64,000 nucleotides of DNA from Alphaproteobacteria bacterium (GTDB lineage: Bacteria; Pseudomonadota; Alphaproteobacteria; SPJN01): contig CBDDFN010000010.1 in NCBI GenBank assembly GCA_965227065.1, positions 9,098 through 73,097 of the forward strand, given 5' to 3'. Below, piece by piece: positions 52,241 to 56,214 of the stretch. Within the stretch, counting starts at the first letter, position 1. Every line of letters begins with the position of its first letter. The translations under genes and the position numbers were made by a program. The notes below the pieces were generated by a model that saw only the letters and a program-made list of their open reading frames with translations, did no database searches and had not been told where the DNA came from.

Positions 52241-53511
52241 CCCAAAAGTCAGACATCATCCTTGAGCGGATGATGGCCCTGCATCCCAAGCTGATCGACC
52301 TTCACCTTGATCGGGTCGAACGTCTGTTGGCCGCGCTTGATCATCCCGAACAGGCGGTCGGGCCTTGCGTTCATGTCGCCGGAACAAATGGCAAGGGCTC
52401 AACTGTTGCCACGCTTGAGGCGATGGCTCTGGCGCAGGGATTGAGCGTCAATCGCTATACCTCGCCCCATCTGGTGCGCTTTCACGAGCGCATCGCCCAT
52501 GACGGCACGCCGATTGATGAGGCACAATTGAGCGCGGTTCTGGCGGCTTGCGAAGACGCCAATCAGGGCGCGGCGATCACCTATTTTGAAATCACCACCG
52601 TGGCGGCGTTTGAAGCCTTCCGGCAGCGGCCCGCTGATCTCACCCTGCTGGAAGTCGGGCTGGGCGGCCGGTTTGATGCCACCAATGTGCTGACCCCTTC
52701 CGTTTCAGTGATCACCCCGGTGGCGATGGATCATCAGCAATTTCTCGGCGACACGATTGAAGCGATTGCGGGCGAGAAAGCCGGTATCATCAAACCCGGC
52801 GTGCCGGTGGTGGTTGGCCCGCAATGCCATGCCGCGCTGTCGGTGATTGAGGAGCGCGCCGAGACGCTTCGCGCCCCTTTATGGGTCCATGGCCAGGACT
52901 GGACCGTGTGGGAGGAGCGCGGGCGGCTGATCTATCAGGATGAGCATGGCCTGCTTGATCTGCCGCTTCCTAATCTGAACGGTGCCCATCAGATCCACAA
53001 TGCCGGGGCCGCGATTGCCGCCAGCCGCGCCGCAGACCTGCCGATTGATGAACAAGCGATGGAGCGCGGCCTCCGCCAGATCCGCTGGCCCGCCCGCCTG
53101 ATGCCACTGCCCGCCCATCCGTTTTTGAAGGCGCTGCCCGATGGGGCCGAGCTGTGGCTTGATGGCGGTCATAATCCGGCCGCCGGTCAGGCGCTCGCGC
53201 AGTTCATGGCCGAGCGTGCAAACCGTGACCCCAGACCGCTGGTTCTGATTGCGGGCATGCTCAACACCAAGGATCAGCAGGGCTTTTTCATGCCCTTCGC
53301 GCCGCTTGAACCGCAAGTTCTGTGCGTGCCGATCGAAGGCGAGCCAAGCGCCACACCCCCTGAAACTCTCGCTCAAAAAGCACAAGCCGCCGGGTTGGAA
53401 GCGGCGGCTTTCGCGTCTTTGTCTGAAGCGCTGGGGACCATCGCACAGACGGCCCCGCGCGTGCTGATCTGCGGCTCGCTTTATCTTGCAGGCCAGGTGT
53501 TGCGCGCCTAG
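52237..53511 (+). CDS. folC: Bifunctional folylpolyglutamate synthase / dihydrofolate synthase
   Basis: P-loop [11 protein letters not shown], Mur-ligase fold. Confidence 0.9.
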
Positions 53512-54020
53512 CGCTTTTTGCCAGTCAGCAGCGGTCCTGCAAACTGGTCAACCGAAAACAGACCCGGCCCTTTGGCGATCAGGATCAGCAAGGCACCGGC
53601 CCAGAAAATGTGATCAGACCACAGGTTCGGATAGACGAAAAACTGAATGACAAAGGTCATCCCGAAGAGCGCCAGCGCGCTCAGCCGCGTGGCAAGGCCC
53701 GCCCATAGCAGAACCGGTATGGACAGCTCCATATAGGTCGCCAGCGTTGCGGCCAGTTCAGGCGGCAGCACCGGCACCTGATATTCTTCCTGAAACAGGA
53801 AAACTGTGGTTTGTGTCACACCATAGTCGGCGTCAATCTTGGTGTGGGCGGATTTCCAGAACACCATGCCCACGCCAATGCGCGTCATCAAAAGCGCGAG
53901 CGACGCAATCAGCGTGTGACCAAGCGCGGTATAGAGCGCCGCAATCTTGCCGCCCAGCCCGCCGAGCAGCCCGGGGCTTTCAAATCCGTTTTGTTCAATC
54001 GTCGCCATCATTCCCTCCAT
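53508..54020 (-). CDS. DoxX family membrane protein (bufferin-operon accessory)
   Basis: 4 TM, DoxX-like (LMTRIGVGMVFWKSAHTKI...). Last gene of the DUF2282-DUF692-DUF2063-DoxX operon. Confidence 0.8.
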   Translation of the reverse strand: MEGMMATIEQNGFESPGLLGGLGGKIAALYTALGHTLIASLALLMTRIGVGMVFWKSAHTKIDADYGVTQTTVFLFQEEYQVPVLPPELAATLATYMELSIPVLLWAGLATRLSALALFGMTFVIQFFVYPNLWSDHIFWAGALLILIAKGPGLFSVDQFAGPLLTGKKR

Positions 54021-54807
54021 GTCCCATGATCGATGGTGTTCCCAGCAGTTCAGCAGTGATCAGCGCGGCAAGGGCAGGGGAGCCATTCATCCCCATCGCT
54101 TCCATCACCACACCCAGTTGCTCGCCCGCAGCGAGGCGTTCAAACAGATGGGCTGCAATCTCGCCCACCCGCATCACCTCGACCTCAAGATGGGGGCGCG
54201 CGATAATGATGAAGACCGGCTCTGTATCAAGCTTGATTTCCGCAAGCGAGAAAGACGCGCCGGGCTGATGGGCTTCCCAGATCTGATCGACCGGCCAGGG
54301 CGAGCGCATCAGACGCGCGCTGGCAATCGGCTTCCATTGCGATTGCGACAGCGCCTCGGGATCCGCCTGCGTCAAGGTTTGCGCATCGGCAGGCTTCTCG
54401 TCAGCGGCGTGGAAACTTTCCGCCCACGCCCATTCGAGCCGTGCCACATCGCCCAGATAGGGAACCGTTTTGGCCGGCTCGAACCGGTCGATAAACCCCG
54501 GCAGCTCACCGCCATACTCAAACAGCGCAGCGCTGTGCGGCGGGTGCTGCTCAACAAAGCGGATCGCCATGGCTTCAAAAAATTGCTCGCCCACCAAAGC
54601 CGCGCAGACCGGAAAGCTCGACGCGAGACTTTCAGCCAAAAGGATGCGGACCGTGTTGGCGTGAATTTGCAGACGCTGGCGCGGGTCAAGCCCGTTGGGC
54701 GTGATGGTCGCCGACAGGGTTTGCGGCAGCGCGGTGTCAGCCCGCACCCCCTTCAAGACGGTCTCGGCAAACGCCCCTTGCAGCGCCTCAAGCTTGGGAT
54801 CAGCCAT
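53995..54807 (-). CDS. DUF2063 domain protein (BufC/MbnC-like partner of the MNIO enzyme)
   Basis: 270 aa; the DUF2063 N-terminal pattern (QLEALQGAFAETVLKG...LQIHANTVRILLAESLASSFP) lies immediately downstream of DUF692. Confidence 0.8.
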   Translation of the reverse strand: MADPKLEALQGAFAETVLKGVRADTALPQTLSATITPNGLDPRQRLQIHANTVRILLAESLASSFPVCAALVGEQFFEAMAIRFVEQHPPHSAALFEYGGELPGFIDRFEPAKTVPYLGDVARLEWAWAESFHAADEKPADAQTLTQADPEALSQSQWKPIASARLMRSPWPVDQIWEAHQPGASFSLAEIKLDTEPVFIIIARPHLEVEVMRVGEIAAHLFERLAAGEQLGVVMEAMGMNGSPALAALITAELLGTPSIMGHGGNDGDD

Positions 54808-55642
54808 GGGCCGTTCCCATCACACGCTCTTCCGACAGGATGCGTTCGGCCAGTTGGGCCTGATTGACCAGTGTCGCAAGGTCAGGCACGGCACTGTCCC
54901 ATTCAATCAGGGTGGGCACCGGACCAAGCCGGGCGATCATATCGGCATAAAGCCCCCAGACCGGGACGGGCACTTCGCTGCCATGATCATCAATGCGGAT
55001 TTCAACGCCATCGACGTCGCGCACCGTGTGACCGGCCAGATGAATTTCACCCACAATGTCATTGGGAATTTTGCGCAGCCAGGCATGGGGGTCAAAACCG
55101 TGATTGCACGCCGAGACAAAGACATTGTTGAGATCGAGCAAAAGCCCCGCACCGGTGCGCAAGCACGCTTCGGCGATAAACTCGGCCTCTTCCATGGTGG
55201 AATGTTCAAAGCACAAATAGGTTGAGGGGTTCTCAATCAGGATGCGGCGGCCCAGATAATTTTGCGTCTCGTCAATATGCGCGCACAGATGATTGAGCGT
55301 TTCTTCGGTGTAAGGCAGGGGCAAAAGGTCATTGAGAAACAGGCCCGGCATGCCGCACCAGGCAACATGTTCCGACACAAGCTCGGGCTGGTAGCGGTCA
55401 ACAAGCGCTTTAAGGCGCTTGAGATGCATCGGGTTCAATCGCCCGGCAGAGCCCAGCGAGAGCCCGACGCCATGACAGCTGAGCGCATAATCTTCGCGGA
55501 TTTTTGACAGCATGGCGTGCGGAACACCGCCTGCGCCAAAATAATTCTCCGCGTGAATTTCAAAAAAGGCGAGCTTGGGCCTGGCCTCCAGCACATCGTG
55601 ATAATGTTCAGCCTTGAGTGAAATGCCCGCGCCTGCCGGCAT
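54800..55642 (-). CDS. DUF692 multinuclear non-heme iron oxidase (MNIO; BufB/MbnB-like)
   Basis: TIM-barrel DUF692 motifs (FFEIHAENYF; VSEHVAWCG; ILIENPSTY; LLLDLNNVFVSACNHG; EIHLAGH). Start taken at MPAGAGISLKAEHY. Confidence 0.85.
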   Translation of the reverse strand: MPAGAGISLKAEHYHDVLEARPKLAFFEIHAENYFGAGGVPHAMLSKIREDYALSCHGVGLSLGSAGRLNPMHLKRLKALVDRYQPELVSEHVAWCGMPGLFLNDLLPLPYTEETLNHLCAHIDETQNYLGRRILIENPSTYLCFEHSTMEEAEFIAEACLRTGAGLLLDLNNVFVSACNHGFDPHAWLRKIPNDIVGEIHLAGHTVRDVDGVEIRIDDHGSEVPVPVWGLYADMIARLGPVPTLIEWDSAVPDLATLVNQAQLAERILSEERVMGTAHG

Positions 55643-55762
55643 GGTGGTTTTCCGGCTCCAGGCTGATGTCTTTTTTGAAGGCATGGGTTTCACTCGCTTG
55701 CGCAGTACGGATAAGGAGCATGTGGGGGCACGATCATGCCCCCACAAGCGGGGTAGGAAGCC

Positions 55763-56029
55763 TTACGCTTTGGGCTCAAGCGAACCGCCGGTCAGCTTTT
55801 CGCACGTGCCGGCAGGGACAAAAATCCACGCATCGCCTTGATTGTCGGCTTTGGAGGTACCCGCGCATGAGCTGGTCGAGGTCTGGCAGTCATTCTTGCC
55901 CGCCTTGGCCACGCCGTAGCATTTTTCATTGTCGCCCGCATTGGCGGTGGTTGAGGCCACACCCATCGAGATGGCCGAAGCAATGGCACCAGCTGCAGCC
56001 AGGCCGACGATTTTGGTCGCTTTGTTCAT
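55763..56029 (-). CDS. DUF2282 bufferin-type RiPP precursor (BufA1-like), Sec signal peptide plus 4-Cys core
   Basis: [31 protein letters not shown] | [57 protein letters not shown]. GGAG RBS. Confidence 0.8.
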   Translation of the reverse strand: [88 protein letters not shown]

Positions 56030-56214
56030 GATGAACTCCATAGGTCTTGGTTTTCCAAAATTGCGCCGGCCCCGGATTTGCCGCTCCCGACGTCGAGGCT
56101 CAGCATCTTCAGAACACCGATCACACGCAATCGACGTCTCAACACATTGGCGTGAGAGCTTGTGAACTGCTAAAAGAGCGCCAACCAAAACCGACAAATT
56201 GTCAGGAGAGCGCC

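Follow-up and report, generated by a model that had tools for sequence, protein, structure and literature searches.

What does a compact four-gene cluster in an uncultured alphaproteobacterium make, and does it depart in any way from the systems it resembles? The cluster lies on the minus strand of a 64,000-nucleotide stretch of DNA (assembly GCA_965227065.1, contig CBDDFN010000010.1, positions 9,098 to 73,097; the whole of this stretch is referred to here as the window). A first-pass annotation had described it as a complete operon for a bufferin, and all four open reading frames (ORFs) of that minus-strand operon are found where it placed them. Bufferins are secreted, enzyme-modified copper-binding peptides, and the family was described in 2024 and occurs in thousands of bacteria (PMC11626156). 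Our analysis shows four consecutive, tightly packed genes in the order bufA-bufB-bufC-bufD with a coding span of 53508–56029, and the locus is very probably a canonical buf1 cluster, bufABCD, that encodes a bufferin of the Buf1 (DUF2282) type and is a routine member of its class.

Gene content and class

The precursor gene bufA (55763–56029, minus strand) encodes an 88-residue protein that matches PF10048 (DUF2282/BufA1) over the full length of the profile, with E=9e-26 and 90 bits against a cut-off of 22.4. A Buf1 precursor was recognised by the DUF2282/BufA1 signature together with a length of about 80–120 residues, and BufA has both. Among 5.8 billion clustered proteins, 5184 BufA homologues were identified, and four cysteines spaced 11/7/21 are present in 119 of the 120 best of these. 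The four-cysteine core quoted in the first-pass annotation is present in BufA, with cysteines at positions 6, 17, 24 and 45 of a 57-residue core. In an alignment of 77 homologues the core is near the family consensus; three of the cysteine columns show no variation, and in the remaining one (C55, CysIII) conservation is 90% or more. Residues 1–31 are a predicted Sec signal peptide, beginning MNKATK with two lysines, continuing in an Ala-rich hydrophobic core (a 19-residue stretch with a mean Kyte-Doolittle value of 1.97), and ending A-N-A↓G, and the AxA cleavage motif is conserved across the alignment. The Sec signal claimed for the precursor is thus predicted here too, and the case named at the outset as speaking against a bufferin, a precursor with no cleavable signal peptide, is not what the rule-based prediction finds.

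The second gene, bufB (54800–55684, minus strand), encodes a multinuclear non-heme iron oxidase (MNIO, formerly DUF692) of 294 residues. BufB matches PF05114 (MbnB_TglH_ChrH) with E=2e-102, and its score of 374.5 bits against the NCBIfam model NF050167 (MNIO_BufB, 'MNIO family bufferin maturase') is above the equivalog cut-off of 310. Among solved structures, the closest is 3BWW, a DUF692 protein (E=2.5e-41). Against GTDB representatives, the highest BufB identity is 57–60%. The metal-site residues H71, H106, E151, D184, N187, H215, D232, H234 and E261 are all present, and these nine are at least 97% conserved among 84 BufB sequences. Their spacing fits the ligand sets in the MbnB structures, His/His/Glu, Asp/Asn/His and Asp/His/Glu. 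N187, D232 and H234 correspond to N175, D242 and H244 of HvfB, the site-3 residues discussed in 10.64898/2026.07.17.739211.

The product of bufC (53995–54807, minus strand) is the DUF2063 partner, a 270-residue protein with a putative RRE-like C-terminal domain, and it matches PF09836 (DUF2063/HvfC_N) with E=9e-22. Sequence searches of the PDB with BufC and BufA gave no matches, and BufC was placed by a fold search. Its AlphaFold2 (AF2) model has a predicted local distance difference test (pLDDT) score of 94.6, and Foldseek matches it to TglI (8HCI_A, E=1e-5), which is the partner of the MNIO TglH, and to the DUF2063 structure 3DEE (E=3e-4). Over the C-terminal ~70 residues, lasso-peptide RRE proteins give weak matches (E>2), and the RRE-like part is weakly supported by the model. 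Taken together, these matches fit the published account of BufC, which gives it a DUF2063 domain and an RRE-like one (PMC11626156). The last gene of the operon, bufD (53508–54008, minus strand), encodes a 166-residue integral membrane protein of the DoxX family (PF07681, E=2e-16) with three to four hydrophobic segments; DoxX is frequent, although not universal, as the fourth core gene of Buf1 clusters.

Models of the sister groups all score well under their cut-offs (BufA2 28.7 bits against 60, HvfB 221 against 360, HvfC 54 against 142, HvfX 46 against 80), as do those of MbnB (47.5 against 325), ApyH and ChrH, and the cluster is therefore specifically of the Buf1 type. The A-B-C-D order recurs in 62 of 83 related loci. 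There is one copy of each buf gene in the window, with no second bufferin, MNIO or DUF2063 copy. The bufferin assignment of the first-pass annotation thus held on gene content and order, the four-cysteine core, the signal peptide, the equivalog score of BufB, the fold of BufC and the DoxX gene; the coupling of the genes, the family matches, the metal-site residues and the purifying selection described below support it, at the level of sequence, as well.

The best-studied counterpart is the buf1ABCD cluster of Caulobacter vibrioides (CCNA_03363-03366; Leprevost et al. 2024, PMC11626156), which has an identical four-gene order and a Sec signal. Caulobacter Buf1 has cysteines at positions 12, 23, 31 and 52 (spacing 11/8/21) with Asp22, Ser30 and Ala32 as neighbours, and Cys23 and Cys31 are the modified residues (PMC11626156). 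BufA has in common with it the CysI-CysII spacing of 11, the CysIII-CysIV spacing of 21, and the D-C and S-C-A contexts of CysII and CysIII, respectively, although its core is shorter (57 versus 68 residues) and has 5 rather than 11 residues before CysI. The AF2 model of BufA has strands at 34–38 (NEKCY) and 68–72 (WIFVP), which are the equivalents of the strands Thr9-Tyr13 and Trp44-Lys48 determined for Caulobacter Buf1 by nuclear magnetic resonance (NMR; PMC11626156), and a two-strand beta-sheet is thus predicted at equivalent positions in the two peptides. The gig operon of Cupriavidus metallidurans, named for its gold-induced genes, shares the four-gene Buf1-type architecture, as do its Legionella and Bordetella homologues; for these, inducers or regulators are known (metal stress, BvgAS), whereas the operon described here is known from sequence alone.

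Between this locus and a known, well-catalogued system there is essentially no distance, and the locus is not new. The function of the family has been published (PMC11626156, PMC12452194, PMC13097082), and the view that operons of this kind carry no annotation beyond hypothetical or DUF proteins is outdated: Pfam, NCBIfam, RefSeq and UniRef all carry names, with PF10048 named 'BufA1' in Pfam, BufB, BufA2 and HvfC models in NCBIfam, and homologues in RefSeq and UniRef called 'BufA1 family periplasmic bufferin-type metallophore'. The locus is one more uncharacterised member, in an uncultured alphaproteobacterium, of a family catalogued in thousands, and has little significance beyond its correct annotation.

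Boundaries, conservation and proposed maturation

Close comparisons were made with two independent metagenomic relatives, L001 and L003, whose BufA proteins are 88–89% identical. Both keep the whole neighbourhood, with trpBA-accD-folC, the convergent bufDCBA genes and a divergent acyl-CoA dehydrogenase gene. The right-hand end of the operon had been put at 56041, but the ATG at that position is ACG in L001 and is not conserved. The ATG at 56029 is kept in all three sequences. It is preceded by GGAG, 6 nt upstream, and translation from it gives an 88-residue BufA that is present as an exact sequence in NCBI/ENA, on a 373-kb contig, and we therefore take bufA to start at 56029. The starts of bufB at 55684 and bufD at 54008 are taken from the gene calls of L001 and L003, which give 294–295 residues for the enzyme and 165–166 for the DoxX protein; an exact 166-residue DoxX protein is also recorded in NCBI/ENA. 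The bufC start overlaps the bufB stop (ATGGCTGA), and the 5′ end of bufD overlaps the 3′ end of bufC. With these overlapping stop and start codons, the genes are packed for translational coupling. At the other end of the operon, the stop codons of bufD (minus strand) and the convergent folC (plus strand) overlap on a shared palindromic CTAG (53508–53511), leaving no room for a terminator between the two genes.

The operon was first described as intact, and all four reading frames are. The ratio of nonsynonymous to synonymous substitution rates (dN/dS) is 0.07–0.23 at dS 0.5–1.3 for all four buf genes in comparisons with L001 and L003, which indicates that each is under purifying selection. The one observation that would suit a remnant that is now silent or decaying and has lost its function is that a simple sigma-70 scan recognised no promoter in the intergenic region, where a simple terminator scan likewise gave nothing convincing. 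Given the intact frames and the dN/dS values, and with synteny, ribosome-binding site (RBS), and the hairpin and upstream block described below all conserved in both relatives, we find such a remnant scarcely credible and regard the cluster as probably a functional buf1 operon.

How the product would be modified and exported, its binding of copper and its physiological role are inferred by homology to the C. vibrioides system. BufA would be made as an 88-residue precursor, of which core residues Cys17 and Cys24 would be oxidised in the cytoplasm to 5-thiooxazoles, with a loss of 4 Da each, by the iron enzyme BufB together with a substrate-binding BufC. The modified peptide would then be exported by Sec and cut by signal peptidase after A-N-A (residue 31), and a Cys6-Cys45 disulfide would staple a small two-stranded beta-sheet fold. 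In Caulobacter Buf1, CysII and CysIII are converted to 5-thiooxazoles and CysI and CysIV form a disulfide, for a total of −10 Da (PMC11626156). Two thiooxazoles plus one disulfide give an expected shift of −10 Da here also, rather than the loss of roughly 8 Da, or a larger one with four thiooxazoles, that had been proposed. The computed monoisotopic mass of the 57-residue core is 5765.63 Da, and that predicted for the mature 57-residue periplasmic peptide is 5755.56 Da (5765.63 minus 10.08). This peptide would bind one copper ion via two thiooxazole N/S pairs (2N+2S) and buffer excess copper, and judging from the genes present, the periplasm of the organism probably contains a copper-buffering peptide. 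BufD would be a conserved accessory that is dispensable for modification, as DoxX is dispensable for both modification and copper protection in Caulobacter (PMC11626156).

The mass alone would be the same if the modified residues were oxazolone-thioamide pairs as in methanobactin, since these are isobaric with 5-thiooxazoles at −4 Da, albeit with different ligand chemistry, and the related enzyme HvfB was first reported as making oxazolone/thioamide (PMC11252979). We nevertheless consider this very improbable, because the 5-thiooxazole in Buf1 was assigned by NMR (PMC11626156) and 5-thiooxazole is also the structure given for bufferins and HvfA in later work (10.64898/2025.12.15.693703, 10.64898/2026.06.05.730506, 10.64898/2026.07.17.739211, PMC13097082). 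With 5-thiooxazoles as the preferred assignment, the product would fall with the MNIO thiooxazole products that have been grouped as 'captophorins' (PMC13097082).

Two further groups of systems can be compared. Buf2 (BUF_6/12Cys) and the EGKCG/oxazolin-HvfA-fontiphorin systems ('captophorins', PMC13097082) have homologous MNIO and DUF2063 proteins, Cys-rich precursors that are exported by Sec, and copper ligands of the 5-thiooxazole kind, but the precursor family here differs from theirs, as is reflected in the BufA2 score given above. Methanobactin synthesis (MbnA/MbnB/MbnC) also uses an MNIO with the same metal-site residues to oxidise cysteines in a ribosomal peptide to a copper ligand. MbnB is distant from BufB, however, with the low model score noted earlier and MbnB matches in the PDB at E about 1e-7, and the methanobactin system differs in its partner MbnC, its oxazolone-thioamide product, its leader peptide and its role as a secreted copper-acquisition chalkophore.

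Control of the operon

In Caulobacter, buf1 is driven by SigF, a sigma factor of the extracytoplasmic function (ECF) type, from a GTAACC-N16-CGAA promoter and is restrained by NrsF (PMC11626156). Unlike in Caulobacter, there is neither an adjacent sigF-nrsF pair nor a GTAACC-N16-CGAA promoter at this locus, and this is the first of several observations that weigh against reading it as a canonical copper-buffering buf1 cluster. A SigF motif (GTAACC-N15-17-CGAA, with up to two mismatches) is absent within 230 nt upstream of bufA, and Pfam and NCBIfam scans of ~50 ORFs of the window revealed no sigma factor, NrsF, MerR/CueR-type, or response regulator/two-component gene; the sole regulator found in the ORFs scanned is a MarR gene 20 kb away. 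A search for a copper-responsive promoter upstream of bufA had been suggested as a check, and none was recognised, the SigF motif being absent. Because no copper-linked regulator or promoter was recognised, copper induction is an assumption. As for the proteins, the CysII-CysIII spacing is 7 in BufA versus 8 in Caulobacter Buf1, the signal peptide was called by rule and without a trained predictor, and the AF2 model of BufA is of moderate confidence (pLDDT 62 overall and 72–81 in structured parts). BufC and BufD also fall under the HvfC and HvfX cut-offs of NCBIfam, a shortfall that is expected because those models describe a sister group.

These regulatory differences have to be placed against the family as a whole. 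With one mismatch or fewer, the SigF motif is found in 18 of 72 related loci, and when the two nearest upstream genes of 62 related loci are scanned with Pfam, 17 loci have NrsF and about 14 have ECF sigma domains. To have no dedicated regulator is the majority condition for the Buf1 family, and the SigF-type promoter is missing from most Buf1 operons, this one included. The comparison bears on an alternative in which the thiooxazole peptide is made but its job in this lineage is to respond to and protect from a stress other than copper (for instance hypochlorite, sulfur or oxidative stress, or another thiophilic metal), with control by a further regulator acting on the conserved divergent block described below. 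The absence of both SigF-type promoter and sigF/nrsF pair here would agree with this alternative, except that the motif is also missing from about three quarters of related loci, so that its absence is not distinctive. The strong, lineage-specific conservation of the upstream block favours it, as do literature reports that gig/buf operons are induced by gold, cadmium and other metals, the existence of MerC-bufferin fusions, and a possible link of DoxX to oxidative or sulfur stress. The core peptide is near consensus, however, and the contexts of its modified cysteines equal those of the copper-selective Caulobacter Buf1. We regard a non-copper role as unlikely, and buffering of copper remains the preferred function.

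The intergenic region between bufA and the divergent dehydrogenase gene is conserved very unevenly. A 103-nt block at 56112–56214 has 87–94% identity with L001 and L003, whereas the adjacent 70 nt (56042–56111, 92 alignment columns, extending to the bufA RBS) have only 36–41%; for comparison with the block, synonymous differences in the genes are 0.36–0.61. The block holds a dyad, GACAAtTTGTC, at 56193–56203, an 18-nt direct repeat at 56142–56159 and 56194–56211 that is spaced 52 nt, and a 34-nt invariant stretch, CACGCCAATGTGTTGAGACGTCGATTGCGTGTGA. Its motifs do not recur upstream of bufA in 80 other loci, an exact 22-mer taken from it has 0 matches in metagenome contigs, and Rfam identifies no family in the leader or the spacer even at E≤1. 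The block may serve bufA, the dehydrogenase gene or both. Expression of the operon is probably driven from this conserved block by a regulator other than the Caulobacter SigF/NrsF pair. The dyad TGACAAtTTGTCg resembles the Escherichia coli CusR box, TGACAA-NN-TTGTCA, but its spacer is 1 nt and it lies directly against the RBS of the dehydrogenase gene, and we do not claim it as a copper box.

Within the operon, the 78-nt bufA-bufB spacer contains a GC-rich stem-loop of 32 nt (55718–55749, minus strand) with an 11-bp stem and a 4-nt loop, which begins 13 nt past the bufA stop and is without a clear U-tract. The hairpin alone folds at about −25 kcal/mol, and the enclosing 76-nt region (55690–55765) at −29.8 kcal/mol (z=−2.7). 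L001 and L003 keep the stem unchanged, and the loop differs in all three sequences. A similar element is seen widely in related operons, where the best hairpin in the first 60 nt after bufA has a median of −24.1 kcal/mol (n=68), compared with −14.6 kcal/mol for control windows inside bufB and bufC of the same loci (Wilcoxon p=3e-10); 84% of the 68 loci, from many genera, are at or below −18 kcal/mol. The sequences of these post-bufA hairpins are unrelated, and most of them are without a U-tract.

In other operons for ribosomally synthesised and post-translationally modified peptides, an attenuator or a 3′-end stabiliser can yield an excess of precursor mRNA. By this analogy, the hairpin is a candidate intra-operon attenuator or 3′ mRNA stabiliser, and it would probably raise the ratio of precursor to enzyme transcripts. 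A recurrent hairpin following the precursor gene may thus explain an excess of precursor over enzymes in buf operons. Neither of the two main bufferin papers, PMC11626156 and PMC12452194, uses the terms terminator, stem-loop or, with this meaning, hairpin, and the control block is likewise unmentioned in them; the hairpin and the control block are the sole items at this locus that go slightly beyond the statements in these bufferin papers. It is a tentative proposal, and on balance a somewhat doubtful one, that both parts hold jointly, with the hairpin as a family-wide and undescribed element of buf1 operons and the operon of this lineage wired not to SigF/NrsF but to the 103-nt block. If it is true, the proportion of precursor to enzyme could be set by the hairpin, either through partial termination or through protection of the transcript 3′ end.

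Neighbouring genes and the rest of the window

The neighbours of the operon, a convergent folC and a divergent acyl-CoA dehydrogenase gene, are unlike those in Caulobacter. The dehydrogenase gene noted in the first-pass annotation is present upstream of bufA, in divergent orientation, with its ATG at 56215 and a length of 614 residues. A functional tie between it and the operon was rejected, the adjacency being found in the two closest relatives only and not in 62 other loci. Following the dehydrogenase gene is an ORF of 323 residues (58068–59039, plus strand), the synteny of which is kept in L001 and L003. It has sub-threshold matches to the metallo-beta-lactamase fold (Lactamase_B_2, E=1.3e-3), and Lactamase_B_2 genes accompany CxxxxC-type MNIO clusters (PMC12452194). 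We excluded it as a buf gene, as it is below the cut-off, is separated from the operon by the dehydrogenase gene and lies outside the buf transcription unit.

The rest of the window is housekeeping in nature and includes clp, ptsP, rodZ, ispG, prfA, prmC, argJ, secA, pyrF, trpFBA, accD and folC. ARAGORN and Rfam identified no structured RNAs in the window besides two tRNA-Ala genes, at 28010–28085 (plus strand) and 41388–41463 (minus strand), with anticodons CGC and GGC. A hydrophobic ORF of 293 residues (29652–30533, minus strand) is without a Pfam or NCBIfam match and lies in a stretch where a picker based on GC content at third codon positions (GC3) finds no high-GC3 ORF; the ORFs at 28380–28952, 29011–29565, 35903–36463 and 12281–13006 are likewise without family matches.

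A cluster for glycine betaine synthesis and transport, including a BCCT transporter, is located at 30802–34033 on the plus strand. Its glycine/sarcosine N-methyltransferase scores 486 bits against NF051855, above the cut-off, and a sarcosine/dimethylglycine N-methyltransferase-like gene scores 338 bits, below the cut-off of 550. The presence of this cluster points to an alphaproteobacterium adapted to salt, probably a marine or saline one.

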